Positions 16,373 to 44,100 of a stretch of 64,000 nucleotides of DNA are shown piece after piece. Each line of letters opens with the position of its first letter. Position 1 is the stretch's first letter. Source of the stretch: Nanobdellota archaeon (GTDB taxonomy: Archaea > Aenigmatarchaeota > Aenigmatarchaeia > QMZP01); the NCBI GenBank assembly GCA_018816245.1, contig JAHIVW010000003.1, positions 470,834 to 534,833 on the forward strand. Reading direction: 5' to 3'. Under the pieces are notes generated by a model. That model made no database searches and had not been told where the DNA came from. It worked only from the letters and a program-made list of their open reading frames with translations. The translations under genes were made by a program, and so were the position numbers.

Positions 16373-16376
16373 GGGG

Positions 16377-20930: not shown

Positions 20931-20934
20931 AGGA

Positions 20935-27182: not shown

Positions 27183-27183
27183 A

Positions 27184-28173
27184 CTAGAAGAGGTGCTCCT
27201 CCACCAACCGGGCCGCTTGTCCTGGTTTGCCGATGATTGTTTCCCTGACGCCGGGGATTTCTTGCAATCGTTTCTGGAGTTCTGGGACGTCTTTCTCAAG
27301 ACAGAACACTTTCACTTGCGGTCCAGCGTCCATAGTGAAGTAGGATTCAAGACCTTCGTCGCGCCAGTCCTGGATCGCGTGCATGATCGCGATTGTTGTT
27401 GGGTTCCAGTACAAAATAGTTGGGATAGTCGTAATCATGGTTGCGTGCATTTTCAATCCGTTTCGTTCTGCGGTTTCTCCAACTTTCGTGAAGTCTTTGT
27501 CGCGGATTCCTTGGCGAACGACGTCGAGATCTGCAGGAACCGTGTCAAGCCAGCCCTGATACATAGGCGACGTCTTGATGGTTTGTGACATGCCAGCTCG
27601 GCTCTTGATTTTTTTCTCACCTGTTGCGGTGATTGCAACGATCATGCGGAATGCTGGCCAGTGGTCCGGTGTGGCAACTTGTTTCCCGTAGGAATCGTCG
27701 CCATCTGCTTGTTCACCTTTCAACCATTCAATGAAGCCTGCGCCGACGGATCGTGATGCAGAACCAGAACCGCGTCGGGAAAGAATGGACAGTTGTTTTT
27801 CATCGAGGTCGAGGCCAGCTGCTTTTGCAGCTGCAACAGAGAGCGCGGCAAACCCGGATGCAGACGAGGCGAGGCCAGCTGCCGTCGGGAAGCTGTTTTC
27901 TGATGCGACCTTTGCTTTCTTGTTGATGTTCGCCATGCCGCGGACTAAATCGAGATGTTTGATAACTTGGTCAAGTTCCTTTCCTTCAACCGATTCTCCA
28001 TTCATGGTGAGTGTGTCGGCTTCAAAGTCGCCGAACTCGACAGTTGTTTTGGTGTGGAGGCCGTCCACGGTCATGGACAAGCTCCCGTTGTTGGGAAGCA
28101 TGAGATCTGCGTCTCGCTTTCCCCAGTACTTGATCAACGCAATATTCGCGTTTGCAATCGCCGTTGCTTTCAT
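27184..28173 (-). CDS. mvaD: Diphosphomevalonate decarboxylase family (MVD/PMD homologue)
   Basis: N-terminus ANANIALIKYWGKRDADLMLPNNGSLSMTVDG is the MVD family signature. Confidence 0.8.
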   Translation of the reverse strand: MKATAIANANIALIKYWGKRDADLMLPNNGSLSMTVDGLHTKTTVEFGDFEADTLTMNGESVEGKELDQVIKHLDLVRGMANINKKAKVASENSFPTAAGLASSASGFAALSVAAAKAAGLDLDEKQLSILSRRGSGSASRSVGAGFIEWLKGEQADGDDSYGKQVATPDHWPAFRMIVAITATGEKKIKSRAGMSQTIKTSPMYQGWLDTVPADLDVVRQGIRDKDFTKVGETAERNGLKMHATMITTIPTILYWNPTTIAIMHAIQDWRDEGLESYFTMDAGPQVKVFCLEKDVPELQKRLQEIPGVRETIIGKPGQAARLVEEHLF

Positions 28174-29198
28174 AGTTTCACTCCTTCGACCCCAAGGTCA
28201 ACTTCAATCGGCTCAAAGCCGAGGTTGGTGATCGTCTGTGCGAGCTTCACACGATCAGCATGATGACAGAGCATGATGCCCCCGCCGCCGGCACCGCAGA
28301 GCTTTGCTGCGCCGCCGATGTCGCGCACGGCTTCGGCGATTTTGTCAATCGTCGGTGTTGAGACGCCGAGTTCTGCGAGTGTTTTCTGCGTCAGGTTCAT
28401 CAGGGTGCGGACGGTGTTGTAGTCTTTGTTTTTTAACGCGGTTTTCATCTGCACGGTTGCTTCGCCGAGGGCTTTGACGCGAGGCGTGCGGAAGTCTTCT
28501 GGTTTGTCTTTGACTAATTGGACGAGTTCGCCGGTGTTCTTTTCTGGAGGGCCGGTGTAGACAAGGACGAAGTTTTCGAGTTTGTGGGGGATTTCGTCTT
28601 TGAGTGAGATGATGTCGTTTTTCGGTTGGTTCTTTCGGAACCAGATCAAGCCACCAAAGCAGCAGGCTGCATTGTCGCCGCCAGACGGCGTGCCGTGGAT
28701 GACTTGCTCGAGCTTGAATGCGATGTCATTGACGCGTTCAAGTGAGATGGACTTTTCGTAAACAGTTGCGATCGCCTTCACGAGCGCGACAGCCAAGGAT
28801 GACGAGGAACCGATACCGGCACCGACCATCCCAGCGCCGTCAATGGTGACAGAGACACCGCCGTGAATGCCAAGCTCGTGGAGGGTGATGCCGACGACGG
28901 CTTTGCGGTAGCCGCTGTAGCCGTCGCTCCGAACAAAAGCAAACAAGTCACTGAAAGTGCCCTTTTCCTTGCAGGAGTCCCAGAGTTTTTGAACCTGTTG
29001 TGTTGTTTCCACAACATCGTCGAGTGACCACTCCCGGGGGATTGGGCTAAATCGCTTGTCAAGGTAAGAAACGTTTTCTGCCTTCTCGGCCGTGACCGTG
29101 GTCTGGAGGCCGATGGCAGCGATGATCGCTGGTTCGCCGTAGACCACGCTGTGCTCGCCGATGAGGTGCACCTTTCCAGGGGCGGAAACCGTGACCAT
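28170..29198 (-). CDS. mvk: Mevalonate kinase (GHMP kinase). True start MVTVSAPGKVHLIGEHSVVYG at 29198; the six-frame ORF is over-extended to 29762.
   Basis: APGKVHLIGEHSVVYG (MVK motif 1), GSSSSLAVALVKAIA (GHMP motif 2). ATG verified on the reverse complement of 29187-29198. Confidence 0.8.
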   Translation of the reverse strand: MVTVSAPGKVHLIGEHSVVYGEPAIIAAIGLQTTVTAEKAENVSYLDKRFSPIPREWSLDDVVETTQQVQKLWDSCKEKGTFSDLFAFVRSDGYSGYRKAVVGITLHELGIHGGVSVTIDGAGMVGAGIGSSSSLAVALVKAIATVYEKSISLERVNDIAFKLEQVIHGTPSGGDNAACCFGGLIWFRKNQPKNDIISLKDEIPHKLENFVLVYTGPPEKNTGELVQLVKDKPEDFRTPRVKALGEATVQMKTALKNKDYNTVRTLMNLTQKTLAELGVSTPTIDKIAEAVRDIGGAAKLCGAGGGGIMLCHHADRVKLAQTITNLGFEPIEVDLGVEGVKL

Positions 29199-29210
29199 AC
29201 AACAGGGTAG

Positions 29211-29230
29211 ATATAAGTATTTAAATATTA
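29211..29230. promoter_or_regulatory. Bidirectional TATA element (atataagtatttaaatatta) between mvk (minus strand) and the divergent 329-aa gene (plus strand)
   Basis: TTTAAATA consensus at 29220-29227, about 23 nt upstream of both divergent start codons (29198 and 29247). Suggests leaderless transcripts. Confidence 0.5.
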
Positions 29231-29246
29231 GCCCGTAGATGGGGGT

Positions 29247-30236
29247 ATGTCTGAGCTGTATGTTCCTCGGCCGGTTGTTGGTGTTGCCTCCAGTTTTGAT
29301 GGGATTATCAACAACGCAGTTGACGAGTGTGCTGCAGTTTCTTTCGGGGCGTATGATGTTTTGAGCCCGGGAAAACTCAAATCTATTGGATTGGGTCGCC
29401 TTGCTCATCCAGCTGATCTGACACCCGACCACCGTGACCATCGTGGGTATGAGGCGTTCCGACGGCTTCGTCCGTTGGTTGCAAAAGCCGGTGACTATCT
29501 TCCTGTTGTGGAAATAATTCATGAGGAACCTGGAGCTATCGATCGCATGCTCGCTGATCCAAACAACCGCGAGGCCTATCAGGATGCAATTCAGGTATAC
29601 AAGACGAGATTGGAAGCAGCAAAAGCAGACGGCCGTTGGGAGAAGTTTGGACAAAAGAAAGTTGGTGTATTCTATATTGAACGTAACCGCCTGAAAACAC
29701 TTGATGAACAAGCATGGAACGGAATGCAGAGTCCTATGGCTCAAACAGTCCGTGAATTTCATACACTTGTTGATGCAGCTGAAGTTACTTCTGATGGGAA
29801 ATTTATTGATGGATACGCTCCTTTCTTTGCGTCATCAAAAGATCCAGTTTCTATTTTTGATCTGTGCCTTCTCTATTCCCGGGAAGACCGTCTCGAAACC
29901 GGTATGGTTGGTCCAGGAGCACAATGTGTTATCTCACGTGACCGAATCTATGGAAACGATGTAGGTGAAGGTGACAAGGTCATCCAACTCAGTAAGGTTG
30001 CATCTACGCTTCGTTCGTCACATGATAGGATCGTTCGTGTTGATGATCGGTTTGATAGAGAAGAAGTCGATGCACTAAGAGCTGCAGGCTTTGACCATGT
30101 TGTGGTTATGGAAGGCGGCTATGTGTTCCCATGGGATCTTGATGAAGCCCGGGAAGAAGGAAGCGGTGTGACCGTGCTTCCACGAGAAGGATTTGCACAA
30201 GCATTTTCTGACTATGCTAAAGCAGAAGGCTTCTGA
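29247..30236 (+). CDS. Hypothetical cytoplasmic protein (329 aa) divergent from the mevalonate operon. No family recognised.
   Basis: Good coding character, no overlap, own TATA box. No recognisable catalytic motif. Confidence 0.5.
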   Translation: MSELYVPRPVVGVASSFDGIINNAVDECAAVSFGAYDVLSPGKLKSIGLGRLAHPADLTPDHRDHRGYEAFRRLRPLVAKAGDYLPVVEIIHEEPGAIDRMLADPNNREAYQDAIQVYKTRLEAAKADGRWEKFGQKKVGVFYIERNRLKTLDEQAWNGMQSPMAQTVREFHTLVDAAEVTSDGKFIDGYAPFFASSKDPVSIFDLCLLYSREDRLETGMVGPGAQCVISRDRIYGNDVGEGDKVIQLSKVASTLRSSHDRIVRVDDRFDREEVDALRAAGFDHVVVMEGGYVFPWDLDEAREEGSGVTVLPREGFAQAFSDYAKAEGF

Positions 30237-30749
30237 TTAATCCAAATTTTCCAGAAACACCTTAAACGCTACCCGGCACGCTGGTGTAAATGCTTCTGGT
30301 TCCTTTTTCATCTTCATTTTTGCTTCGTCGAGCGTCATGATGACAAATTCCGTCGCTTCTTTACTCTTCACAAAGGGGCCATCAGACTGTGCGGAAAACA
30401 CCATCAGGTTCTGCATATGTTCCGGTTCGTAGCTTTTTGCTGGACCAAGTTTTTTCAGCGACACGGAAAGACCGGTTTCTTCTTTGAGTTCGCGTGCTGC
30501 TGCAGTTTCGTAAGTCTCGCCAGAATCAACGTGACCTGCGCCAGCTGCTGTCAGAAGATTTGGAAACGTATCAACCCAGGCAGCGCGTTTCTGAAGCACA
30601 ATCGAGCCGTCTGACTTGACAACGTAGATTTGAACAAGCCGGTGGATCAGCTGCTTTTCATGGCACTCCTTTCTCGTTGCCTTGCCAATGACCTCGTCGT
30701 TTTCGTTCACCACATCGTAGATTTCGGGCATGAAATTCCTTGTAGACAT
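30237..30749 (-). CDS. Nudix hydrolase
   Basis: Nudix box GHVDSGETYETAAARELKEETGL (Gx5Ex7REUxEExGU). Confidence 0.75.
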   Translation of the reverse strand: MSTRNFMPEIYDVVNENDEVIGKATRKECHEKQLIHRLVQIYVVKSDGSIVLQKRAAWVDTFPNLLTAAGAGHVDSGETYETAAARELKEETGLSVSLKKLGPAKSYEPEHMQNLMVFSAQSDGPFVKSKEATEFVIMTLDEAKMKMKKEPEAFTPACRVAFKVFLENLD

Positions 30750-30772
30750 TTTTTAAATATGAGACATCAGGT

Positions 30773-31414
30773 GTGATGATGAAACTTGCAATCTTTGACT
30801 ATAATGGCTTGCTCGTCAACGATCTTCCTGTCCACGAACAGGCGTATGTGGAACTCGCAAAACGGCACGGAAAATCATTCTCCCTCGATGACCTGAAACA
30901 GCTCATGCACACCCCAACAAGGAAGAAAGTAGAGTGGATCATTGGCTCGCCAGACGAGGAGAAGATTGCCGCTGCCCTGAAAGAGAAGCAAGACATTTAC
31001 ATCAACCTTGCGAAGAAGGGCGTCCTCTTCCCCGACACGCGAACCGTGATTGAATCGCTCTCTCAGAAATACAAGCTCGCCATTGTAAGTAATTCAACCC
31101 GCTACCAGATTGTTGAAGTGTTTCCAAAGGAGTTGCTGGAACACTTTTCAGTTGTTATGACCTACGAAGACATTACCAAACCAAAGCCAGCGCCCGATTC
31201 CATTCTCGACGTGCTCACGAAACTCAGTCTCCCGAACACCGAGGCGTGCTATGTTGGTGACGAGCTTTCTGACATCAAGGCAGGGAAGGCGGCGCAGGTC
31301 CTTGCAATCGGGGTTCCAAGCGGGTATCACTCAGCGGAAAAACTCAAAGCAGCAGGCGCTGATGTCGTCATTGGTTCGCTCTCGGAACTCGAAGCGGTGC
31401 TGGAAAAACACTAG
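30773..31414 (+). CDS. HAD-superfamily hydrolase (phosphatase or phosphoglucomutase-like subfamily)
   Basis: Motif I LAIFDYNGLLV, motif III VGDELSDIKAGKAAQ. Confidence 0.7.
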   Translation: MMMKLAIFDYNGLLVNDLPVHEQAYVELAKRHGKSFSLDDLKQLMHTPTRKKVEWIIGSPDEEKIAAALKEKQDIYINLAKKGVLFPDTRTVIESLSQKYKLAIVSNSTRYQIVEVFPKELLEHFSVVMTYEDITKPKPAPDSILDVLTKLSLPNTEACYVGDELSDIKAGKAAQVLAIGVPSGYHSAEKLKAAGADVVIGSLSELEAVLEKH

Positions 31415-32163
31415 TGAACAAACTGTTTGGCCATTTCTCGAATGTCTTCAAAATAGAAGTCTGCGCCTTCTCGTTTGAGGATTTCCCGGTCAGGAACTTC
31501 TGAAAGCGTTACAATCGAAACAACACCCGCGGCTTTCGCAGCTTGCACATCAACCGCAGCGTCGCCAACGTACGCGGTTTTCGCACGCTCGATGCTGAGA
31601 TCGTCACAGATTTTGAGAATGCCGTCCGGGCTCGGTTTCTTGATGTTCATGTCCTCTCCTCCCAACAAATACGAAAACCGGTCCAGATACGGACCAAGGT
31701 CACGATCAAGCGTCGAGGATGCGGCGTTGCTCCAGATAGCAAGCGTGTAGCGGTTCTTGAGTTCGTCAAGGACTTCAGGAATACCAGGAAGGACTCGAAC
31801 AAACTGCCCAGCAGCCTGGGAATAGAAGAATTCTTTGTAGACGTTTCGGGCATCTTTCATCTTTTCGTAATCTGCTTCTGTAACGTATCGTTCAAGAAGT
31901 GCGTCGCACGCTGCTTCTGGTGCTTCGGTTGCAACAAGCTTTTCAATTGTTGTTCCTGCCCTCTGGAGCGCGTACATCAAAGTGAGGCACTGCTGGCTGT
32001 TGTTGTATTTGCCAAGGGACCGCATCAAGCGATACTCTCGTTTGGTGTATGATGTGGGGACGCCGATTGCCTTCAGCCCACGGAGCATTCCTTCGAGTCC
32101 TGCAGGGGCGGAATCCCGGAGGACACCGTCCACATCAAAAATGAAGAGTTCAAGATCGGGCAT
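31411..32163 (-). CDS. HAD-superfamily hydrolase
   Basis: Motif I LFIFDVDGVLRDS, motif III YVGDAAVDVQAAKAAG. Confidence 0.75.
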   Translation of the reverse strand: MPDLELFIFDVDGVLRDSAPAGLEGMLRGLKAIGVPTSYTKREYRLMRSLGKYNNSQQCLTLMYALQRAGTTIEKLVATEAPEAACDALLERYVTEADYEKMKDARNVYKEFFYSQAAGQFVRVLPGIPEVLDELKNRYTLAIWSNAASSTLDRDLGPYLDRFSYLLGGEDMNIKKPSPDGILKICDDLSIERAKTAYVGDAAVDVQAAKAAGVVSIVTLSEVPDREILKREGADFYFEDIREMAKQFVH

Positions 32164-32265
32164 GCAAACGTACTGCAGGAAAGATAGATAAAAGATTCAT
32201 AACAGTGTTATACTCCCCTTTTAATAATCTTCTGACTAAACACCTCCGCCTGAGGTGAATATTGT

Positions 32266-33513
32266 ATGAGTAAGGTCAAAGACCCGTCGCTCGCCCCCCA
32301 AGGGCGGCTCCAGATCGAATGGGCAGCCAAGCAGATGCCCGTGGTCTCTGCGCTCCGCGAGGAGTTCGCGAAAACCAAGCCCTTCAAAGGCCTCGTGATC
32401 GGGGGCGCGATCCACGTCACGAAGGAGACTGCCAACCTGATCCTGGCCCTCCGGGACGGAGGCGCTGAGGTGGCCTGGGCAGCCTGTAATCCCCTTTCCA
32501 CACAAGATGACGTCGCAGCAGCCCTCGCCGAAGAAGAAAACGTCCACATCTACGCCTGGAAGGGTCTCACGAACGAGGACTACTACAAGAACATGGACAA
32601 GGTCCTCGAGCACAAGCCTGTGATCACCATGGACGACGGCGGCGACCTAGTCTTCCGGCTTCATGAAAAGCATCGTGAGTTGATCCCGTCAATAAAGTTC
32701 GGGACCGAGGAAACCACCACTGGTGTGGTCCGCCTGAGGAACATGGCAGCGGACAAGAAACTCGGCTACCCCGTCATCTCAATCAACGATGCAATCACAA
32801 AGCAGGATTTTGATAATATTTACGGTACAGCCCAAGGCACCTTCGACGCGATCATGCGCGCCACCAGTGTGCTGATCGCCGGCCGGACCGTTGTCGTCGC
32901 TGGCTTCGGGCACTGCGGCAAGGGCGTTGCGCTGCGCGCGCGGGGCATGAACGCGAACGTCATTGTCACCGAAGTGTCACCAGTCAACGCGCTCCGCGCA
33001 GTCATGGAAGGCTTCCGAGTCATGCCCATGAAAGAAGCCGCCAAAGTCGGCGACATCTTCGTCACGGCAACTGGTGTCAAGGACATTCTTACGAACGAAC
33101 ACTTCGAGCTCCTGAAAGACGGTGTCATTCTCTCGAATGTCGGCCACTTCAACCTGGAGATCCGGACTGACCAGCTCCAAGAAGCGAGCACGAGCAAGCG
33201 CACTATCCGTTCAGGAACCGAGGAATACACGTTGAAGAGTGGGAAGAAGGTCTTCCTGCTTGGCGAAGGCCGCTTGGCAAACCTCGCGTGTGCAGAAGGC
33301 CACCCATCTGCGGTCATGGACCTGTCCTTCGCGAACCAGCTCCTTTCGATCAAGTACTATCTCGACAAGAAACTGGAACCAGGCGTCTACTCGATTCCCA
33401 AAGGACAGGATGACGAAGTCGCCAGGAGAAAACTTCAGAGCATGGGATGTACTGTTGATGCTTTGACCAAATCACAGGAAGACTACATCACCTCCTGGTC
33501 AGAAGGAACGTAG
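32266..33513 (+). CDS. ahcY: S-adenosyl-L-homocysteine hydrolase
   Basis: FGTEETTTGVVRL, NAD-binding AGFGHCGKGVALRARGMNANVIVTEV. Archaeal-size protein of 415 aa. Confidence 0.9.
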   Translation: MSKVKDPSLAPQGRLQIEWAAKQMPVVSALREEFAKTKPFKGLVIGGAIHVTKETANLILALRDGGAEVAWAACNPLSTQDDVAAALAEEENVHIYAWKGLTNEDYYKNMDKVLEHKPVITMDDGGDLVFRLHEKHRELIPSIKFGTEETTTGVVRLRNMAADKKLGYPVISINDAITKQDFDNIYGTAQGTFDAIMRATSVLIAGRTVVVAGFGHCGKGVALRARGMNANVIVTEVSPVNALRAVMEGFRVMPMKEAAKVGDIFVTATGVKDILTNEHFELLKDGVILSNVGHFNLEIRTDQLQEASTSKRTIRSGTEEYTLKSGKKVFLLGEGRLANLACAEGHPSAVMDLSFANQLLSIKYYLDKKLEPGVYSIPKGQDDEVARRKLQSMGCTVDALTKSQEDYITSWSEGT

Positions 33514-33514
33514 T

Positions 33515-33781
33515 ATGGACCCCACTGAGCAACAGCAAGCTGCACTGCAGCTGGAACAACAGAAACGGGTCATCATGCTCAGGATTCTGTCGAAGGAGGC
33601 ATACGAACGGCTGGCGCGAATTAAGCTCGTGAACCCAGAACTGGCAGGGCAACTGGAACTGTACATCATGCAACTCGTCCAAGCCGGTCGGCTGACAGAC
33701 ATGGTCACTGACCAGAAACTCAAGGAGATTCTCAAGATTTTGAGTTCGCCTGTACGGAAGACCTCGATCAAGCGGCGATAG
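33515..33781 (+). CDS. PDCD5/TFAR19-like small DNA-binding protein (COG2118 family)
   Basis: QQKRVIMLRILSKEAYERLARIKLVNPELAGQLELYIMQLVQAGRL, typical of the archaeal PDCD5 homologue found next to rpl39e/rpl31e. Confidence 0.7.
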   Translation: MDPTEQQQAALQLEQQKRVIMLRILSKEAYERLARIKLVNPELAGQLELYIMQLVQAGRLTDMVTDQKLKEILKILSSPVRKTSIKRR

Positions 33782-33813
33782 TTTATAAAGAGAAACCCTC
33801 AACAAGGAGTCCT

Positions 33814-33981
33814 ATGTCACGGAACAAGGCATCCGGCCGCAAGCGTCGCCTCATCAATCGCGCAACCAAGCGGGACGCGCCGCGCTGGGCAGACATCAAG
33901 AAATTCGGTCTCAAGCGGGCTCGAACGCGACGAATCCGTGCCAGCCGCAGGAACTGGCGCCGTGACCATCTGAAGGTGTAA
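33814..33981 (+). CDS. rpl39e: Ribosomal protein eL39 (55 aa). Absent from the ORF track because it is under 60 aa.
   Basis: Translation MSRNKASGRKRRLINRATKRDAPRWADIKKFGLKRARTRRIRASRRNWRRDHLKV. Confidence 0.8.
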   Translation: MSRNKASGRKRRLINRATKRDAPRWADIKKFGLKRARTRRIRASRRNWRRDHLKV

Positions 33982-33983
33982 CT

Positions 33984-34487
33984 ATGGCCGACAAAGATAC
34001 CCGCGTGTACACTATTCCGCTTCGCGCTGACTGGCTCAAACAGTCCCGGAATTACCGGGCACCGCGCGCGATTTCGTTTATCCGCGGCTTTGTCCAGAAG
34101 CACACCCATGTCCAGAATGTTCTGCTCTCCGAACGCCTGAACAAGGAGATCTGGGCACATACTGTTTCTCGGCCACCAGCGAAAATCAAAGTCAGTGTGA
34201 AGGTTGTTGATGATGTTGCCCACGTCAAGCTGCCCTTTGAACCAGACTTCACGAAGAAGGAAGAGAAGAAAGGTGGTTTGAAGGAACGACTCTTAGAAAA
34301 AGCAGGTGCAACACCGTCAGGACCGACGCCGAAGGAACAGAAGAAAGAAGCAAAGAAGGCGAAGACTGAAATAAAGAAAACTGAAGAAAAACCAAACACC
34401 GCACCAACTGAGAAGAAAGAAACAGCACCTGAAGAGAAGAAAGAACAACCGAAAACAGAAAAACAACCAGAAACGAAACCCGCCTGA
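33984..34487 (+). CDS. rpl31e: Ribosomal protein eL31 with an unusually long Lys/Glu-rich C-terminal extension
   Basis: RVYTIPLRADWLKQSRNYRAPRAISFIRGFVQKH...LNKEIWAHTVSRPPAKIKVSV is the L31e core (about 90 aa), followed by about 75 aa of KKEEKK/EKKE low-complexity tail. Confidence 0.8.
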   Translation: MADKDTRVYTIPLRADWLKQSRNYRAPRAISFIRGFVQKHTHVQNVLLSERLNKEIWAHTVSRPPAKIKVSVKVVDDVAHVKLPFEPDFTKKEEKKGGLKERLLEKAGATPSGPTPKEQKKEAKKAKTEIKKTEEKPNTAPTEKKETAPEEKKEQPKTEKQPETKPA

Positions 34488-34489
34488 TT

Positions 34490-35296
34490 ATGTCCTTTCG
34501 CGACCAGCTTCTCGCGACCGTCCCTGAACAGCTGCAGGAACACCTTCCCAATACCTACCAACAGCTAGGATCGATTTGTATTTTTTCACTTCCTGCTGCA
34601 GTGAAATCATACAAACAGGCGATTGGTGATGCTGTTCTCAAAGTCTATCCGCGGTTCACAACCGTTTGTGTGCAGCGCGGTCCTATTTCTGGTGAACTGC
34701 GACAACCGACAATTGAACGCATTGCCGGGAACGGGACAGAGACCGTGCACAAGGAACATGGGATTCTCTTTCACCTTGATGTCACGAAGGTAATGTTTTC
34801 AAAGGGGAACCTTGCAGAACGGAAGCTATTGATTCCACTAGTGCAGCCGAACGAGGTTGTTATTGACATGTTTGCTGGCATCGGCTACTTCAGCCTGGGG
34901 ATTGCCAAGCAGGTTCCGGTGACGCTGTTTGCAATCGAGAAGAATCCGGACGCTGTGTTCTATCTCAAGAAGAACATTGTCGCAAACAAGATCACGAACG
35001 TCACGGTTGTCGAAGGGGACTGCCGGACGGTTTCGATTCCGCAAAAGGCTGACCGGATTCTCATGGGATACTTCCCGAATACAGCGCAGTTCTTGCCAAC
35101 GGCGTTCAGGATGGCGAAGGACACAGCAACCATCCACTACCATGATGTTGGCAAGCATTTGAGAGAGACCATTGAACGTCACGCGAAGAACGCGGGATTC
35201 ACGGTCACTGCGTTCTCTGAGCACATTGTCAAGAGTGTTGGCCCTCGGACGAATCATGTGGTGTGCGACGTGGTAGTGGAGAAAGGTTTACGTTAA
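34490..35296 (+). CDS. taw2: Trm5/TYW2-family SAM-dependent tRNA methyltransferase or aminocarboxypropyltransferase (Taw2-like)
   Basis: Met-10+ like core VIDMFAGIGYFSLGIAKQ. Size of 268 aa fits Taw2/Trm5 paralogues. Confidence 0.7.
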   Translation: MSFRDQLLATVPEQLQEHLPNTYQQLGSICIFSLPAAVKSYKQAIGDAVLKVYPRFTTVCVQRGPISGELRQPTIERIAGNGTETVHKEHGILFHLDVTKVMFSKGNLAERKLLIPLVQPNEVVIDMFAGIGYFSLGIAKQVPVTLFAIEKNPDAVFYLKKNIVANKITNVTVVEGDCRTVSIPQKADRILMGYFPNTAQFLPTAFRMAKDTATIHYHDVGKHLRETIERHAKNAGFTVTAFSEHIVKSVGPRTNHVVCDVVVEKGLR

Positions 35297-35482
35297 AACG
35301 CGGGGTCTCAGAAGTTTATTCCAAGTTTCATCTTCTTTGTTATCCCAAAGGACTTTGAGAGATGTTTCCGAAAACGTGAGGAAGTCGGCGAACTCGTCTT
35401 TAATATCCTTCGCGGAGTCGGTCATCCTTTCTGATCGTTTGCTTGTTTTGGGGTCCATATGAAAAGAAACGTCTTCTTCCAT
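35288..35482 (-). CDS. Small acidic hypothetical protein (64 aa), weakly supported
   Basis: ORF only. Convergent 9-nt overlap with the Taw2-like gene. Lies downstream of the ACP gene on the same strand. Confidence 0.25.
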   Translation of the reverse strand: MEEDVSFHMDPKTSKRSERMTDSAKDIKDEFADFLTFSETSLKVLWDNKEDETWNKLLRPRVLT

Positions 35483-35644
35483 AAATGGACATGGGTAGGT
35501 TGGTTTCTAAATTCCTTTTTATTCTAGCTAAAACCCGCTGGCTGATAGGATAACACTGTTATAAAGGGCAAGCCACAAGCAACGTCTTGGGGGGGGACGC
35601 TGCCTGTGGACCAAGGAGAACGAAACCGACTGCTAGCGTGGGGG

Positions 35645-35896
35645 TTACGCTAAAAGCTTGCTGACACAGACGACAGCATCGTTGACCGTCCGGATTCTCT
35701 CTCTATCCTCGTCAAGGATGTTGACGTTGAATTCGTCCTCGAGCTCCATCATCAGCTCGACGTGATCGAGCGAGTCGGCGCCGAGATCGTTGATGAAGTC
35801 TGTCTTGGAGTTGACGTTGTCGCGTGATACGCCCAACTGCTCGCAGACGCAGTTGATGACTCTGTCCTGAATATCCTGAACCGATTGCTTTGCCAT
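35645..35896 (-). CDS. acpP: Acyl carrier protein, bacterial AcpP type
   Basis: VCEQLGVSRDNVNSKTDFINDLGADSLDHVELMMELEDEFNVNILDEDRERIRTVNDAV carries the DLGADSLD phosphopantetheine-attachment Ser motif and aligns along its full length with E. coli ACP. Confidence 0.8.
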   Translation of the reverse strand: MAKQSVQDIQDRVINCVCEQLGVSRDNVNSKTDFINDLGADSLDHVELMMELEDEFNVNILDEDRERIRTVNDAVVCVSKLLA

Positions 35897-36099
35897 CGTA
35901 ACCCTTCCTTTCCATCAAAGACTGCAAAAGACGTCCAAAGAACCCGGTTTTCCATCAGCAACCGTCCTGCTGCTCCCCATGTCGAAACCTGTTCCGTGTC
36001 TTGGCTTCGGCCTGTGAATGATCACACCAGAGCAGGCATGACCGGACGATGCAATGATGGATAACCATGAACTATATCGTCAAGATATGACGGTAACGT

Positions 36100-37113
36100 T
36101 TATAACTGTTTCCTGCAGCAAGCGGCCTTGCACCAGTTCGGTTGCACAGTCCCTTCCCGTGCCAAGAGCACGCATCTCGACGGTACCATGCTGTCACGGA
36201 TCTTGTAGGAACTTGTTTTCTCGATTTCTTTTGCAAACGACACAATTTCTCGGTGATAGGGCATGTGGTCCTGCGTCAGCCGGTACTGCGACCCGCCGAC
36301 ATGCACGTAGCCCTTTGCTTCAAGGAAGCGTGGTGAAAACTGATCAGCAAGCTGCGCATATAGGTCAGGATGGAGGAGATTCAGTTTTCGTACCAGCGTG
36401 AGCCTCATTGTGGTTGTCGGGAACTTCTTAAACAATGATAATGATTCCATCAGAAGATCCCACGTATTCGGCAGAATGGGTTTTGTCACCTTCTTGAGAA
36501 TCTCGGGCGTTGGTCCGGCAACGGTCACGTACAGCTGCGTCGGTGGTGTCTTGACCAGTTTCCGTAGCATCGCTGGACTGGTGCCGTTGGTCACGAGGAA
36601 TGTTGTCATACCTCGCTTGTGAATTTCCTGGATCAGTTCAGGGAGGTGCGGATACAATGTTGGTTCACCAGAAAGGGAAATCGCGACATGCTTTGGCTGT
36701 TGCGCTTCTTTGTAAAGTTTTGTTGGTGTTTCTTCGTTGCCACCAAAGCCGCGCAACATCTTGACGTGTTCCTTGATCATGCCGTCGACGATGAATGCTG
36801 GTTCGTCCCAATCGTCCGCTGGGTTGTTATGGAATCGAAGTGTGCGCCAGCAAAAAGAACAGTTCTCGGTGCAGAACTGGACCGTCGGCGTGAACTGAAT
36901 GCACCGCCAGGAATCGATCCCGTAGAATTGTTTTTTGTAGCAAACGTTTTTTCCCCGCAACGACTGCTTGGTCCAGTTGCAGACCTTGATTGCGGAATGC
37001 TTACCGATCAAGCGGTACTGCTGCTTCTCGAGGTTCTTGATCTGGGATGTGGTGAGGGCGTTGGAGGCCATAGGAAGACGTGGCGACTTGGGTTTATGAG
37101 TGGTGTATAACAA
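36100..37113 (-). CDS. taw1: tRNA 4-demethylwyosine synthase Taw1/TYW1 (radical SAM)
   Basis: GKHSAIKVCNWTKQSLRGKNVCYKKQFYGIDSWRCIQFTPTVQFCTENCSFCWR is the TYW1 signature. Confidence 0.85.
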   Translation of the reverse strand: MLYTTHKPKSPRLPMASNALTTSQIKNLEKQQYRLIGKHSAIKVCNWTKQSLRGKNVCYKKQFYGIDSWRCIQFTPTVQFCTENCSFCWRTLRFHNNPADDWDEPAFIVDGMIKEHVKMLRGFGGNEETPTKLYKEAQQPKHVAISLSGEPTLYPHLPELIQEIHKRGMTTFLVTNGTSPAMLRKLVKTPPTQLYVTVAGPTPEILKKVTKPILPNTWDLLMESLSLFKKFPTTTMRLTLVRKLNLLHPDLYAQLADQFSPRFLEAKGYVHVGGSQYRLTQDHMPYHREIVSFAKEIEKTSSYKIRDSMVPSRCVLLAREGTVQPNWCKAACCRKQL

Positions 37114-37115
37114 TG

Positions 37116-37715
37116 TTATACGTCAACACGAATCGAGAATTGTACAAGATTATCACTGAACTGCTCAATCCCCCTATAGACAACTGCGTGCATCCCAACC
37201 TGCTTCGCCCCTTCCACAAACGTCTCACGATCGTCAACAAAGACGCATTCATCTGGCTTTAGGCCTGTCTCAAACACCTTCTGATAAAACCGCGGGTCCG
37301 GCTTCAGCAACCTTTCTTGGCACGAAAAGAGAATCGTGTCAAAGAGTGTATCAAACCCAAGCTTGGTGATTCGTTCAAAGAAGAAGGGATTGTTGTTCGA
37401 GAGAATGATCATTTTGTATCGCGGCTTCAGTTTTTTGATGATCCCAAGAAGCTCGGTGTTCGGTTTCAAATGGGAAAAATAAGTCTTCACATACTTTTTT
37501 TGGTCGATTGAAATTCCAAATTCCTTGTTCAAGCGTTCAAAATACTCGTCAATCGAAATCAATCCGCCATCGAACTTTTTTTCCCGCAGAGACAATTCGA
37601 AGTATGCAAACCGGTCGCGGTCAAGTTGATACTGTTCAGCAAGTGCCGTCCACATTCCTTCAGCATCGAAGAACTCCAGCACGTTTCCCCAGTCAAACAC
37701 GAGCGCCTTTATCAT
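37116..37715 (-). CDS. HAD-like hydrolase
   Basis: MIKALVFDWGNVL (motif I variant), FVDDRETFVEGAKQVGM (motif III). Confidence 0.6.
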   Translation of the reverse strand: MIKALVFDWGNVLEFFDAEGMWTALAEQYQLDRDRFAYFELSLREKKFDGGLISIDEYFERLNKEFGISIDQKKYVKTYFSHLKPNTELLGIIKKLKPRYKMIILSNNNPFFFERITKLGFDTLFDTILFSCQERLLKPDPRFYQKVFETGLKPDECVFVDDRETFVEGAKQVGMHAVVYRGIEQFSDNLVQFSIRVDV

Positions 37716-38220
37716 GGTCGATCTTCTTTCCTCGTTCCTGTGGAATAATCTTCCGCTTCGCATTTGAAAACGATGTCTGCAGCGATCGCTTCCCCAGCGT
37801 CAGATACAAAAACAATGACAGCGCTCCCACTTCCGAATGCGGCTGACTCGTCACTGCAATGTTTTTTGTTGCAAGTTGGTACACCTCAGGCTGCACCTTC
37901 TCTCCACCAACAACAACCAATAAGTCTTTCGTTGAAACGGTTTTTGCAACCTGTTCCACCGGCAACCCGTACACTGTCAGGTGCACGATCTCGCCCTTCC
38001 AGTCCTTGATGAACCGGATCGGATTCTTAACATGCTCCACCGTGAACGTCCCGCCGAACTCTGTTGCAATCCGTTTCGTTGATTGTTCGAGCCCGGTGTC
38101 TCGTTCCCCGGAATAAAAGCCGTTGACCACACCCATAGCGCGCGCAACGAGGAACACGTGCGTGCTCATCCGCTGGTCACGGAACACCCGGTGTCCCAGC
38201 CGCAAAATTGTGACAGTCAT
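37693..38220 (-). CDS. tRNA (cytidine56-2'-O)-methyltransferase aTrm56 (SPOUT)
   Basis: MTVTILRLGHRVFRDQRMSTHVFLVARAMG matches the aTrm56 N-terminus. Length about 175 aa. Confidence 0.7.
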   Translation of the reverse strand: MTVTILRLGHRVFRDQRMSTHVFLVARAMGVVNGFYSGERDTGLEQSTKRIATEFGGTFTVEHVKNPIRFIKDWKGEIVHLTVYGLPVEQVAKTVSTKDLLVVVGGEKVQPEVYQLATKNIAVTSQPHSEVGALSLFLYLTLGKRSLQTSFSNAKRKIIPQERGKKIDHDKGARV

Positions 38221-38555
38221 AACGTTGTGTGCAACAACGCGACAACCTTTTTTTCTTTCGCAAACGCGTTAAAGATGGCTGCTGCTTTTTTTGTCTGTTC
38301 AATGTAGAACTCAATATGTTTGTGCTCGAGCAACTCCTTTGCCCGTTCCTCAATGACAACACTCCCGTTCAATCCAATTCCGAGAATGAATGTGTCACAT
38401 AATGGATAGGTTTGCAGGATGGCAACAAGGTGTTCAATCGTAATCCGGTGCTGTTTCGACCGCATGGCGTATGATCCGTCCCACGCCACTAAGACGTCTC
38501 CCTCGATGATCGTTTCCCCGATCGTGGCTTCTCCGTACGAAACGTCGACATGCAT
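38217..38555 (-). CDS. Hypothetical protein (112 aa), possibly an Mth938-like domain
   Basis: ORF with coding character and an ATGA overlap with aTrm56. No diagnostic motif. Confidence 0.45.
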   Translation of the reverse strand: MHVDVSYGEATIGETIIEGDVLVAWDGSYAMRSKQHRITIEHLVAILQTYPLCDTFILGIGLNGSVVIEERAKELLEHKHIEFYIEQTKKAAAIFNAFAKEKKVVALLHTTL

Positions 38556-38557
38556 AA

Positions 38558-39175
38558 TTGTTCTTGGTCTGCAAAGCCTTAAGGCTTTTCTACTCTCAAG
38601 TCCAAAGACGTTCTATGCGCAGTGATCCGATCCTCTTCCTTGGCGTCTTTGGAATGGTCATTCCGTATGTCATGGGCATCATCTTCATCACCGGCACCAA
38701 AATCTTCCTTGCCGGTGAAACGCTTACCTCCCTACTGACAGTTTTTCTTATTGCAGCAGTTCTGCTCGGCCAACTCCTTGCCTTTTCCGGCTTCCAGCAA
38801 CTCGGCCGGCGGCGCCAAAGTCCGCTGCTGATCTTCGGGTCCGGGCTCGCCATGGTCTTGCTCTTCCTCTCTTTTGTCGCGACGTCGGTCTACAACGAAA
38901 CGTATAACCTCGCCTGGTTGGCAACCGGCTGGGAAGCAGCCTATATGGTTCTTGGGCTCTCGATTCTCGGAGCCCGCAACCGCCTTGACCGGTCCACGCA
39001 ACTCGCTGGCCTGCTCACGGTCATCTTTGTTGTGTTCTTGTTCCTGTCTCCACCGCTCGCGGCGCTCCTTGGCCTCTTCGCGATTCTGGCACAGTTCTGG
39101 GCACTCCTCAAAGCGTACCAACGCACGCTTACACGAGAACGCGCGCATCAACACAAATCGCACGCTTGTCGTTAA
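38558..39175 (+). CDS. Polytopic membrane protein, hypothetical
   Basis: Five or more hydrophobic helices. Start may be the internal Met (MRSDPILFLGVFGMVIPYV). Confidence 0.4.
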   Translation: MFLVCKALRLFYSQVQRRSMRSDPILFLGVFGMVIPYVMGIIFITGTKIFLAGETLTSLLTVFLIAAVLLGQLLAFSGFQQLGRRRQSPLLIFGSGLAMVLLFLSFVATSVYNETYNLAWLATGWEAAYMVLGLSILGARNRLDRSTQLAGLLTVIFVVFLFLSPPLAALLGLFAILAQFWALLKAYQRTLTRERAHQHKSHACR

Positions 39176-39779
39176 TCAGCACGGGGTTCAAATCAAGCTG
39201 CTTGATGTTCGATTTCTCAACCATCTTGGAAACCGTAAGAAGCAAATCTTCGAGGACCCGCAGGTTCACGGGCTTCTGTCCTCGGAAACCAGTCAGCAAT
39301 GCATTCCCTTTGATCTCCGCAATCATGGCCTGTGCATCCTCTCGCTCAATGGGGATCAACCGGAAGGACACATCCTTCAAAACTTCCACAAAGATGCCCC
39401 CGAGACCGAACATGAGCACGGGTCCGAACTGAGGATCCTGGATTGCCCCAATGACCACTTCCCTGAAATTGGTTCCCTTCACCTGCTCCTGCACAATCGC
39501 TCCGGTGATCTTTGCTCGAGGATGGTGCCGCCGGGCCCCTTTTGTGACCTGCTCGAAGCCGTCCTTGACCTCCTGCTCGTTTTTGAGGTCAAGGAGGACG
39601 CCCTCGGCATCAGTCTTGTGGATGATATCAGGAGAAGCCACCTTCAGCACCACTGGAAAGCGCAGGGTCTTGGCGTAGGTCACTGCCTCCCTGGCATTCT
39701 TCGCGTGAAAGAGTGCTGGGGTGGGGATTTTCCACTTTTTGAGGAGACGAGTCGTCTGGGCAGGGTCTTGCAGGTTCAT
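39129..39779 (-). CDS. ADP-forming acetyl-CoA synthetase beta-like ATP-grasp domain protein
   Basis: FPVVLKVASPDIIHKTDAEGVLLDL ... QLDLNPVLINDKRAICVDARVLV resembles the ACD beta / ATP-grasp_5 domain. No alpha subunit adjacent. Confidence 0.6.
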   Translation of the reverse strand: MNLQDPAQTTRLLKKWKIPTPALFHAKNAREAVTYAKTLRFPVVLKVASPDIIHKTDAEGVLLDLKNEQEVKDGFEQVTKGARRHHPRAKITGAIVQEQVKGTNFREVVIGAIQDPQFGPVLMFGLGGIFVEVLKDVSFRLIPIEREDAQAMIAEIKGNALLTGFRGQKPVNLRVLEDLLLTVSKMVEKSNIKQLDLNPVLINDKRAICVDARVLV

Positions 39780-39937: not shown

Positions 39938-40138
39938 ATGCGTGTTATCCTTATTGTTAACAAGGAGAAGCGGGAATTGGACCTCCCCACAGGGAGCACG
40001 GCTGCCCAGGCCCTTGCCGCAGCCGGCCTGATCCCCCAATCCTACCTTGTTGCCAGGGGCAAGGCGATCATCCCGGACACCGCCGAGCTCCTCGAGCAGG
40101 ACCAGCTCACGGCAATCAAGATTGTTTCTGGTGGGTGA
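39938..40138 (+). CDS. ThiS/MoaD/SAMP-like ubiquitin-fold sulfur-carrier protein ending in Gly-Gly (TtuB-like)
   Basis: 66 aa, beta-grasp-like, C-terminal ...AIKIVSGG followed by stop. Confidence 0.75.
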   Translation: MRVILIVNKEKRELDLPTGSTAAQALAAAGLIPQSYLVARGKAIIPDTAELLEQDQLTAIKIVSGG

Positions 40139-40144
40139 GATAGT

Positions 40145-41053
40145 ATGGCATCCTGTTCCTGCGGCAAGCCCGCTGTATACTATAAGGCGTATGAGGCGCG
40201 GCTGTACTGCAAAGGTTGTTTCTGCAGAAGCATTGAAAAACGTGTGAAGAAAACGATCACCAAATACAAGCTGCTTCAGTCAAACGACACGGTCGCTGTG
40301 GGATTTTCCAGTGGCAAGGATTCCACATCACTGCTCCATCTCCTCCATGAAATCACCGGGCCCCGGCGCGACATGAAGCTCGTTGCCATCTCCATTGACG
40401 AGGGGATCACCGGCTACCGGGACACGAGCTTGAAGCTCGCAAAGCAGGTCTGTGCGGGGCTTGGTATCGACCATAAGATCGTTTCTTTCAAAGAGGCCTA
40501 CGGCAAGACCCTTGACGATCAGATACCAAAGATCGAACAGGGCAAGGCGTGTACGTATTGCGGGGTTGCACGACGGCAGCTCCTGAACTGGGCAGCCCGC
40601 GAAGCAGGAGCAACCAAACTTGCTGTTGGCCATAATCTCGATGATGAGGTGCAGGCAATTCTCATGAACTGGATCCGCGGTGATCTTGTCCGCGCCAGCC
40701 GTCTGGGAACGCGCACCGAAGGGAATGATCCAAATTTCATTCCCCGCATCAAACCGCTCCGCTTCATTCCTGAACGGGAAACCGCACTTTACGCGTCCCT
40801 GAAAGGGTTTCCTGTTCATCAAGGAGAATGCCCGCACGCAACTGGAATCCGCTTTGATATCCGCGACTTCCTCAACCAGCTTGAAACAACGTATCCCGGG
40901 ACGAAATTTTCCCTTATCGAAGGATTTGAAAAGATCCAACCGTTCCTCACAACAGCCGTTGCGAAAACAACACACCCGATCACACGTTGTGCTTCATGCA
41001 AGGAACCCTCGTCACAGGAACGCTGTAAGGCCTGTGAACTCTGGTCGTATTAA
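40145..41053 (+). CDS. tRNA 2-thiolation PP-loop ATPase, TtuA/NcsA (Ncs6/Ctu1) family
   Basis: N-terminal CxxC...CxxC zinc finger, PP-loop GFSSGKDST, Fe-S ligands CTYCGVARRQ, C-terminal CASCx9CKAC. Confidence 0.8.
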   Translation: MASCSCGKPAVYYKAYEARLYCKGCFCRSIEKRVKKTITKYKLLQSNDTVAVGFSSGKDSTSLLHLLHEITGPRRDMKLVAISIDEGITGYRDTSLKLAKQVCAGLGIDHKIVSFKEAYGKTLDDQIPKIEQGKACTYCGVARRQLLNWAAREAGATKLAVGHNLDDEVQAILMNWIRGDLVRASRLGTRTEGNDPNFIPRIKPLRFIPERETALYASLKGFPVHQGECPHATGIRFDIRDFLNQLETTYPGTKFSLIEGFEKIQPFLTTAVAKTTHPITRCASCKEPSSQERCKACELWSY

Positions 41054-41103: not shown

Positions 41104-44100
41104 ATGAGGCTTGTGTGGGCAAGTTTCGTTCTTTTCGTCGTCCTTCTGAGTGTACCGGGGGTGAGTGCTGCATCACAGCTTTCATGCCGATTTACAACAC
41201 AAGGCGAAGTGTGCCAGAGCGCTCAGGGCGAGATCACCGTCTATCATTTGTTTGATGTAATGAATTCACATATCGAGATGCCATCGCAAACGAAATTCGC
41301 TCAAAACATCTCCTTTTGTTGTAAGGTCAACGACAACTCCAATGTTATTCTCCAAGGCGGCGCTTGTGCTGCCGGGCCCATCATGGGACAAGACAAGATG
41401 ATTCTCATGCGCCTTGCACAAGCAACGGACAGCCATGCACAAAAAACGACCTATACTGGTACCCCTTATACTACTGACCTCTGTCTCGGGATTGCCAATA
41501 CCGGAAAGGGAACCGGGGCCTCCTGTTCGTACAAAACAACCTGTTCGGGAGACGAACTGTGTTTTGGATCAATCAAACAGGATACCAACTCCCATGTTGG
41601 CGATTGTAGCAGCAGCGCCTATGCAACCAAGATCTGTTGTGACCTTGGGTGGGATGTCACTGGTCCGACGGTCCAGTTGGATCCTGTTTCCAGTCCGACC
41701 AGCAACACAGAACCAATCATCACTGGAACAGCAACCGATACCTCGCTTCCCATCTTCCAAGTCTGGGTCAAGATCAATTCAACAGTCACTGGTGACACGA
41801 TCATTGCTGGAAACGCAACGTTGAATACTCCAGGATCGCTGGTGACGAATTTTGTGTTTGCCCCGGAACTCACTACAGTCGATCATTCCTATCTCGTTAC
41901 AATCTATGCAGTTGATAACGGACAAAACAAGGGAGCCGCCAAGACAGCTCCTCTTGTCGTTGATGTAACACCCCCTGTGGTCACACTGAGTACAGCAGCG
42001 AGCGCGACTGCTGACACCACACCCGTATTCTCGTACACCGCCACTGATGCCACGACCCAGATCAAAACGCTCAAATACCAAGTCAAGAAAGCGACAGGAG
42101 GCACGGTTGTTATTGATTGGACAACGATCCAGACACCGAACACCTTCGAAACAGGAACCCTCACTGACGAGACGTATGTGGTCACGCTCCGAGCTACTGA
42201 CTCGGTCGATCTAAGTGCCACCGATGAAGAAATTATTATTATTGACACCAAAGCGCCCACGACCACAGACAATGTTGATGGCAGTGTTACCTATTCGCCG
42301 TCTGGTGTTACTTTTGATCTTAGCTGTAACGATGATTATGGAGGCGTTGCCGGAAGCGGCTGTGCGACCATCAAATGGTGCCTTGCCCCTGGCGATGCTC
42401 AAACACCCTGCACTGTTCAAGAACAGGGGAGCATCGTCGACGGAAAAGTTCTTGTCGCTCCCCCTGAATGTGTCAGTGGTGTCTGTACTTGGAAAATCTT
42501 CTATCGGTCCATTGATGGAGTGGGAAATACAGAAGCGATTAAACAATCAGCTATTATTGTCTTGGATGCCGAGAGTCCGACTTGTACTCTCACAGCGCTC
42601 CCCGCCTACACACCTACAAACACTGTTTCCTTGATATGGACAACAGAAACCGGCTCGTCGGGAACCCCGATTGAAAGTGTTGTGATCCGCTACAAGAAAA
42701 CAGGTGACACGAGTGAAACTGAAGTCCCAGCAACAATATCGCCAACAGCAATCGGGAATCTCGCAACCAACACGGAATACCAGTTTCGCTGTTTGGCAAC
42801 AAGCGGGACCGGGCAGACAGGTTCCAGCACTGCAGTCAAAACATATATCGACACGGTCCCGCCGCGCATCACCGTTTATCCTGTTCCATCGTTCTTGAAT
42901 ACGACCGAGGTTCCCATCTTCTGGCTCGCGAATGATACGAACACAAGTGTCTCCCCGCCAATCGGTTCTGGTGTTGTTTCTTTGACCTTCCAATACCGCG
43001 TGAATGGCGGGACATGGGCAACTTGGAAGGTATTGGAAAAAACAGATCCTGGCTTTTCGACCAACCCAACAACACCACAGAAATTTGGAAAGGATAACAT
43101 TCCTGTTTCACTCACTAGTGGAGCAACCTATGACATTCGTGTTCTTGCAACCGATGCAGCCGGTCATAACAGTCCTGTACCACCGCCAGCAACAGTGCTG
43201 ATTGATTTTGGCAAACCAGTGTGTTCCCTTGACGATCTCCCACCATTCGCGCCGCTTGACGGCGACGCCACGGTTTCGTGGACATCAATTGATACCGGCG
43301 GTTCTGGTGTGGCCTTTGCAACAATCAAGAAGAGTGCGAATCCTCCCAACTGGCAGGACATCCCTCCGGTTGAAAATGACCCAACAGGATCAGAGGTCAT
43401 CGACCTTGCGAACGGGCAAACGGTATTCTTCCAGTGCCGCGCTTTCGATTTTGCGGGAAACAAGGGGGACGCATCGGAGATTGTGTCGCTTTCTGCTGAT
43501 TATGCCGGCCCAACAATCGGCGTTACCACGGCAACGAGTGTAAAGCTGCTCGAAAACCTTTCCGTAGCAGCAACGATTCTTGATCACTTCAATGAAATTG
43601 AAAGTGTCTCATTAACCTTTAACGGGTCGACGGTTGTGACAACGTCAATAACCGCATCGTCTGATAACCAAACCTGGAACGTGACCTGGACAGTTCCGTC
43701 TGCAGGGAAGGGAAAGGGCATCTACTCCTTTTCAATCACGGCAACAGACGCTCTCGGGAACGAGAACACGACAACAAAAACCTTCTCAATCGTCACCTGT
43801 GTTGAAGGATCGACAAAATCATGCGGAAGTAATGTCGGCGTCTGTGAAGCAGGCATCCAACTTTGTGTGGATAACGAGTGGGAGGATTGTCAAAACCAGA
43901 CGTTGCCGACAGTAGAAGTCTGCAATAACAAGGATGATGATTGTGATGGCAGCGCTGATGAAAATCTCACAAAGTCGTGCGGTGGACCGAATATCGGTGT
44001 CTGCAAAGTCGGAATGCAGACATGCTTGGGTGGGGTATGGACCAACTGTATCGGAGCAGTCTACCCTGAAACAAGCGAATTCTGTGGCGACGATCTCGAC

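Follow-up and report, generated by a model that had tools for sequence, protein, structure and literature searches.

Comparative sequence analysis identifies the product of an open reading frame at 35645-35896 on the (-) strand of a 64,000-nucleotide stretch of archaeal DNA (the whole stretch is called the window below) as an intact acyl carrier protein (ACP) of the bacterial AcpP type. Comparison with related loci places its gene, as a lineage-specific insertion of a single gene, where taw1 and taw2 converge within a conserved block of housekeeping genes. By the affinities of its product, the gene is bacterial in type, and it was probably acquired horizontally from bacteria. We consider it somewhat probable that this inserted gene provides a holo acyl carrier for enzymes that are encoded elsewhere in the genome.

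An acyl carrier protein of the AcpP type

The reading frame starts with ATG, ends with TAA, and encodes 83 amino acids (MAKQSVQDIQDRVINCVCEQLGVSRDNVNSKTDFINDLGADSLDHVELMMELEDEFNVNILDEDRERIRTVNDAVVCVSKLLA); its NCBI record is MBU0953505.1, "MAG: acyl carrier protein [Nanoarchaeota archaeon]", on a contig of 555 kb. The product matched the Pfam PP-binding family (PF00550) with E = 1.2e-11 and 45.2 bits (cut-off 20.8). It also passed the curated cut-offs of two housekeeping ACP models, NCBIfam NF002148 (93.9 bits, cut-off 71) and TIGR00517 acyl_carrier (84.9 bits, cut-off 70.45), and missed those of the narrower equivalogs NF002151 (88.3 versus 92) and NF002149 (87.1 versus 106). When the PDB was searched with the sequence, 108 sequences matched; all 60 of those listed are acyl carrier proteins, and the best match among them is Aquifex ACP 2ehs (3e-17). 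The original prediction, made from the letters of the window, had described a full-length 83-aa AcpP homologue with a DLGADSLD motif and ∼45-50% identity to E. coli ACP. The family matches and the position of the motif (residues 37-44) bear out this description, and the identity to E. coli AcpP is 45% in a global alignment and 50.7% in a local alignment of 67 aa.

Models of specialized carriers scored far lower, with 21.4 and 17.2 bits for DltC (cut-offs 68 and 52), 53.6 bits for AcpM (cut-off 146), and 32.5 bits for AmcB (cut-off 80). Because no such family cut-off was passed and no adenylation, PKS, or NRPS gene is nearby, the protein does not qualify as a specialized carrier. A family of phage-encoded ACPs, PHROG 5934, also matched (E = 1.3e-19).

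The phosphopantetheine-attachment serine within DLGADSLD is Ser42, and residues 37-56 (DLGADSLDHVELMMELEDEF) contain both the D-S-L motif and the acidic recognition helix. The protein is acidic (pI = 4.2) and has three cysteines. When its positions were scored against the consensus of 253 related ACP domains, the consensus was found to be kept in the motif and helix II at D37, L38, G39, D41, S42, L43, D44, V46, E47, L48, E53, and F56, and also at T70 and V71, at the beginning of helix IV. Rare residues occupy six usually conserved positions in the same comparison (C16, L61, R65, N72, V76, and C77); the usual residues are Ile at 16, Pro at 61, Ala at 65, Gly at 72, and Tyr or Phe at 77. Judged by these positions, the protein is divergent, not degraded.

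An AlphaFold2 model of the protein (mean pLDDT 89.8) has four helices (residues 6-21, 42-56, 62-67, and 71-82), and Ser42 is the first residue of predicted helix II. In a Foldseek search with this model, the top-ranked structures were type II FAS ACPs, with TM scores of 0.81-0.93 and rmsd values of 0.5-1.2 A for the best ten, and the PDB neighbors included ACP in the MukBEF and NFS1-ISD11 complexes. The predicted structure thus has the four-helix-bundle fold of ACPs.

A single-gene insertion in an archaeal housekeeping block

Family matches indicate that the surroundings of the ACP gene are archaeal throughout. A local map, drawn from precomputed Pfam matches on a matching 114-kb Logan contig and from direct scans, places genes for DUF498, Trm56, a HAD hydrolase, and Taw1/TYW1 in this order on the (-) strand, followed by a 203-bp gap and the ACP gene. 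On the (+) strand, convergent with the ACP gene, are those for AdoHcyase, a dsDNA-binding protein, L39e, L31e, and a Taw2/Trm5-family protein. The upstream boundary of the insertion is taw1 (TYW1, 4-demethylwyosine synthase; 36100..37071, (-)), which matches Radical_SAM and Wyosine_form, and the downstream boundary is the taw2/trm5-family methyltransferase gene (34490..35296, (+)), which matches Taw2 models best, below their cut-offs. The gene for L31e lies at 33984-34487 and that for L39e at 33814-33981, the latter with a weak but full-length match to NF002316 (E = 0.004). These matches confirm that, as had been proposed, the ACP gene lies between taw1 and a taw2-like gene, beside rpl39e and rpl31e. 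Other genes of the window encode translation proteins (eRF1, S5, L30, L15, S19e, class I LysRS, LeuRS, ValRS, and ProRS) and SecY, fibrillarin, an ATP-dependent DNA ligase, and a RIO kinase.

The nearest sequenced relatives were recognized by Taw1 homologues of 70%, 59%, and 57% identity, and the taw1/taw2 junction is readable in two of them, the contig of the 70% relative (GCA_964373515.1) ending 39 bp past taw1. In the 59% relative (loci L009/L010), Trm56-Taw1 is convergent with Taw2-L31e-L39e-dsDNA_bind-AdoHcyase-PfkB-S19e, and the 3' ends of taw1 and taw2 overlap, with no intervening gene. In the 57% relative (loci L011/L012), a gene for a 252-aa methyltransferase occupies the junction, and a VapBC pair lies between Trm56 and Taw1. 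A tblastn search with the ACP across the syntenic loci of the relatives gave no match, and neither ACP nor AcpS was found in 60 related archaeal loci (∼0.64 Mb) that were reached through a neighboring helicase. Neither Taw1 by itself nor an alignment of Taw1 sequences picked up a close relative among the GTDB representative genomes. Because the relatives keep the taw1/taw2 block without the ACP gene, we read no function into its position beside tRNA-modification and ribosomal genes, and a functional link to the wyosine and tRNA-modification genes is rejected.

The block from Trm56-Taw1 through Taw2-L31e-L39e-dsDNA_bind-AdoHcyase-PfkB-S19e (30237-38555) has different insertions in each lineage when the window is compared with L009 and L011. 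The window has the HAD gene between Trm56 and Taw1, the ACP gene, and, between AdoHcyase and PfkB, two HAD genes, a NUDIX gene, and mevalonate-pathway (MVA) genes; L011 has the VapBC pair and the methyltransferase gene. The G+C content of the syntenic loci of the nearest relatives (L008-L012) is 57-69%, versus 51% in the window, which is a large compositional shift inside one clade.

The MVA genes are three adjacent genes of the mevalonate-pathway type at 26076-29762 (-), two of them for GHMP kinases (358 and 530 aa) and one for an MVD-like decarboxylase, and a gene resembling that for an FMN-dependent type 2 IPP isomerase (IDI2) is found at 53861-54916 (+). Judging from these genes, the DPANN genome appears able to make its own isoprenoid precursors, and since they are present in the window, a need of the ACP host for fatty acids is not obvious, a point that we count against the reading favored below.

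Other features of the window were recorded in their own right. At 39938-41053 (+), a 66-aa ThiS/SAMP-like protein ending ...SGG (TIGR01683, E = 4.7e-4; SAMP2, E = 2.8e-3) is encoded directly upstream of a TtuA/Ncs6-like ATP_bind_3 gene, and by these matches the pair looks like a ubiquitin-like sulfur carrier and a tRNA thiolase. A stand-alone 216-aa ATP-grasp_5 protein is encoded at 39129-39779 (-); this domain occurs in the beta part of ADP-forming acetyl-CoA synthetases, and no matching CoA-binding alpha part is present in the window. A run of large genes at 13110-22788 (products of 611, 476, 1517, and 617 aa) and another large gene, lying apart at 5227-7893 (888 aa), presumably encode lineage-specific surface or host-interaction proteins; four of the five are without any Pfam match, and the 611-aa product has faint Ig-like matches only. 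The gene at 41104-44541 (+) encodes a secreted or membrane-anchored protein of 1145 aa with Ig/FN3-like repeats, at the C terminus of which Cys-rich repeats (a weak MopE-like match) are followed by a transmembrane tail.

The stop codons of taw1 and taw2 are 803 bp apart in the window, and the ACP gene is the sole convincing gene between them. It is flanked by an upstream spacer of 203 bp (35897..36099, (-)) and by a downstream stretch of 348 bp that reaches to the taw2 stop codon (35297..35644, (-)). Direct reading of the upstream spacer shows an SD-like GGAAGG at -14 to -9 before the start codon, similar to the signals of leadered genes elsewhere in the window, no A/T box near -30, and a TTATAAA box that overlaps the taw1 stop codon. 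This box is a possible promoter for the ACP gene, whose transcript may arise by read-through from taw1 or from a start of its own at the box. Most genes of the window have an A/T box (TTTAAA, TTATAA, and TTAAAT types) 25-32 nt before ATG, a spacing that points to mostly leaderless transcripts. In a smaller set, to which the ACP gene belongs, the start codon is preceded by an SD-like GGAG or GAAGG at -8 to -14 in place of the box.

The stretches around the gene were also searched for other elements. No hidden non-coding RNA was found in the spacers, where Rfam gave no match at E <= 1, and their six-frame translations show no recognizable remnant of a fab gene. An ORF for an acidic 64-aa product lies downstream of the ACP gene (35288-35482, (-)), with a 9-bp overlap at the taw2 stop codon. 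It is called in the JGI/GEM annotation only, its GC3 is 0.48 compared with a gene mean of 0.60, and its product has no family match and matched only itself among 5.8e9 proteins. From this sequence evidence, its coding status is doubtful, and the self-match and weak coding signal led us to reject it as a partner of the ACP.

A word-indexed search of 5.8 billion proteins found no orthologue of the ACP above 54% identity, and none of its matches is identifiably archaeal. These matches lie in contexts of bacterial appearance (GC 36-40%), with NorB/COX1 or with a PlsC-type acyltransferase and glycosyltransferases; one member of the closest family (54% identity) has the PlsC-type acyltransferase on one side and two glycosyltransferases on the other. 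When 1.8 billion cluster representatives were searched exhaustively with HMMER, 21,788 matched, and the best single-domain matches are typical bacterial AcpPs with 55-62% identity; many of these carry spurious N-terminal extensions, which we attribute to over-long ORF calls. Of the 20 top clusters looked up, only two carry organism names, in both cases Pirellulales/Planctomycetota, and a Planctomycetota-like donor is our best guess from these sequences; with only 83 residues, the donor is not resolvable further. Transfer as viral or mobile-element cargo is not supported: no relative was found on viral contigs, phage ACPs have at most 52% identity, repeats at the site are at chance level only, no viral gene or integrase is present there, and PADLOC gave no hit.

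The composition of the gene was compared with that of the 38 other genes of the window, as the original prediction had called for. The ACP gene proved native to its neighborhood in GC (0.52, z = 0) and codon adaptation (CAI 0.787, z = +0.14). Its GC3 (0.738, z = +2.1) is the highest among the 39 genes, near those of the S19e, L39e, and AdoHcyase genes and within sampling noise at 83 codons. Its native composition implies that the transfer was not recent or that the donor had a similar composition. The exact protein is present on five contigs from different assemblies, of up to 555 kb, and a 1,027-bp contig from run SRR10598177 has 100% identity over positions 35452-36478 of the window, which take in the ACP gene, the spacer, and the 3' end of taw1.

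Two relatives have no ACP gene at the syntenic site, the closest homologues come from bacteria, and the word-indexed search gave no orthologue above 54% identity, results that uphold the proposal of horizontal acquisition. Together with the assembly and composition data, they point to a horizontal acquisition that is not very recent rather than to a chimera.

Partner genes and the role of the carrier

The window was searched for partner genes with precomputed Pfam matches for the called genes and a permissive Pfam rescan of ten unannotated proteins. No PPTase (PF01648), fab, PKS, or NRPS gene was found, which agrees with what had been reported from the letters, and the rescan found no cryptic PPTase among the ten proteins. 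The ∼78 kb that are annotated (window -4.8 kb to +73.4 kb, on a contig of at least 555 kb) hold no ketosynthase, FabD/G/Z/I, acyl-ACP synthetase, PlsX/Y/C, PKS, NRPS, or PPTase gene. The ACP gene thus does not co-occur with the FAS II set (FabD, FabH/F, FabG, FabZ, and FabI) in the window or its flanks.

On the reading that we favor with modest confidence, a bacterial AcpP-type gene would have entered the convergent taw1/taw2 junction in one DPANN ('Nanoarchaeota') lineage, and its location among tRNA-modification and ribosomal genes would be an accident of insertion. The protein would be produced, a PPTase encoded elsewhere in the genome would add 4'-phosphopantetheine to Ser42, as is typical of the family, and the resulting holo-ACP would bear acyl thioesters on which enzymes encoded beyond the examined region would act, in fatty-acid synthesis of the bacterial type or in acyl transfer. 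A working carrier is favored because the ACP is intact and has native codon usage in a compact genome, because those few archaea in which an ACP occurs were found to encode ACP synthase and MCAT too, gained by horizontal transfer (PMC3533463), and because several DPANN lineages are described as having bacterial genes for fatty-acid synthesis (PMC8204110, PMC10936187). Features of the sequence that we count against this reading are the lack of a partner gene in the ∼78 kb, the six rare residues, the lack of an orthologue elsewhere, and the lack of an A/T box near -30.

The same features would be accounted for if the genome contained no PPTase or ACP-dependent enzyme and the gene were an orphan acquisition whose product is an unused or slowly decaying apo-ACP, which we regard as unlikely. 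The insertion is of a single gene without the usual fab neighbors, partner genes are absent from the ∼78 kb, the ACP is a singleton with no orthologue above 54% identity, the six rare residues include changes of Pro to Leu at 61 and of Tyr to Cys at 77, and the gene is without the A/T box near -30 that most genes of the window have. However, the frame is intact, none of the residues in the motif and helix II that a PPTase and other enzymes need for recognition has been lost, and the ACP fold is predicted confidently. In addition, the fully native codon usage implies a long residence without decay, and gene-dense, small DPANN genomes would tend to shed useless genes.

A functional holo-carrier could also act outside membrane fatty-acid synthesis, for instance in acylation of a glycolipid or surface polymer, in the use of host-scavenged fatty acids by an acyl-ACP synthetase and an acyltransferase, or in making octanoyl or pimeloyl cofactor precursors. 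The 54%-identity family member that lies between a PlsC-type acyltransferase and two glycosyltransferases fits such a role, the archaeon's own isoprenoid precursor pathway means that its membrane lipids may not need fatty acids, and DPANN are thought to depend on their hosts for lipids (PMC8204110, as context). We nevertheless hold this to be quite improbable, as the ACP fits housekeeping AcpP models, with DltC, AcpM, and AmcB far below their cut-offs, and no acyltransferase, AMP-binding ligase, or glycolipid gene is nearby.

The occurrence of MukBEF and NFS1-ISD11 complexes among the PDB neighbors indicates that the fold is used elsewhere without acyl transfer, and no enzymatic partner is seen locally; a structural or regulatory moonlighting role, like that of ACP-MukB, ACP-IscS, or mitochondrial ACP-LYR, could be derived from this. 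Such a role is very improbable given that the window encodes no MukB, LYR, or ISD11-like partner and that the ACP sequence holds no specific pointer to it. The known moonlighting ACPs, moreover, all double as the FAS carrier of the organism.

It is equally hard to credit that the ACP was retained in the reduced genome of an episymbiont that has no PPTase or FAS II and is used with the machinery of a bacterial partner. One version of this idea, offered as a possibility, is that a Planctomycetota-like ACP mimic receives its load from host enzymes or captures acyl chains of the host; if true, it would mark a DPANN-bacterium association and a new lipid-scavenging route.

Finally, an assembly chimera or bacterial contamination in an archaeal contig, which the original prediction had named as an outcome that would refute it and which the bacterial affinity of the closest relatives and the top-ranking GC3 (0.74 among 39 genes) might suggest, is discarded as next to impossible, because different assemblies yield five contigs, the longest of 555 kb, with one and the same ACP sequence, the 1,027-bp contig of an independent run has 100% identity across the taw1-ACP junction, GC and CAI are native, and archaeal genes lie on both sides within ∼350 bp.

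Comparison with known acyl carrier proteins

The favored reading, a horizontally acquired working carrier, can be set against systems already described. Like bacterial housekeeping AcpP, the protein is acidic and 83 aa long, has a DLGADSLD motif with a serine that starts helix II, and is predicted to have a four-helix fold; its identity is 45-51% to E. coli AcpP and 55-62% to Planctomycetota-type ACPs. Unlike bacterial AcpP, with its plsX-fabHDG-acpP-fabF cluster, it comes from an isolated gene of an archaeal genome, it has rare residues at C16, L61, R65, N72, V76, and C77 and three cysteines, and no PPTase or Fab partner is encoded in the ∼78 kb. Among the sharper markers that set the fatty-acid metabolism of bacteria and eukaryotes apart from the archaeal route, which does without ACP, are ACP and holo-ACP synthase.

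The protein shares with the archaeal ACPs ascribed to horizontal transfer by Lombard, Lopez-Garcia and Moreira in 2012, in the account given in the review PMC3533463, its bacterial type, sporadic occurrence, and origin by transfer, most archaea being without ACP. It differs from the ACPs described there in that those came with ACP synthase and MCAT, which are absent here from the 78 kb, and in that its host is a small-genome DPANN lineage. Bacterial genes for fatty-acid synthesis are also reported from DPANN (Woesearchaeota and others); the enzymes named there are FabG, FabI, and FabZ, and the genes are described as lying in clusters with MEP-pathway or nosZ-like genes (PMC8204110, PMC10936187). 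The ACP gene resembles these as a bacterial lipid gene in the same broad group and differs from them in being isolated in a housekeeping block, in a genome with MVA genes. Like the phage-encoded ACPs of PHROG 5934, it is a small, stand-alone ACP gene outside a fab cluster; it is set apart from them in that no phage or viral-contig ACP is closer than 52% identity and that its site has no viral genes, integrase, or repeats.

The original prediction had presented the ACP as unusual for an archaeon. That a bacterial-type ACP is encoded in an archaeon stands, but it is less unusual than was implied, as precedents have been published (PMC3533463, PMC8204110, PMC10936187). Scattered archaeal ACPs derived by horizontal transfer have been on record since 2012, according to the review cited above, as have bacterial lipid genes in DPANN. 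What is distinctive in the present case is the clean insertion of a single gene, with matching loci that are without the insertion and with no orthologue above 54% identity.

Every ACP found in an archaeon bears on the 'lipid divide' and on the flow of bacterial genes into DPANN. Alone, the ACP case adds an example, not a principle, and its value would rise if the full genome held a complete imported FAS II and PPTase set, or none.
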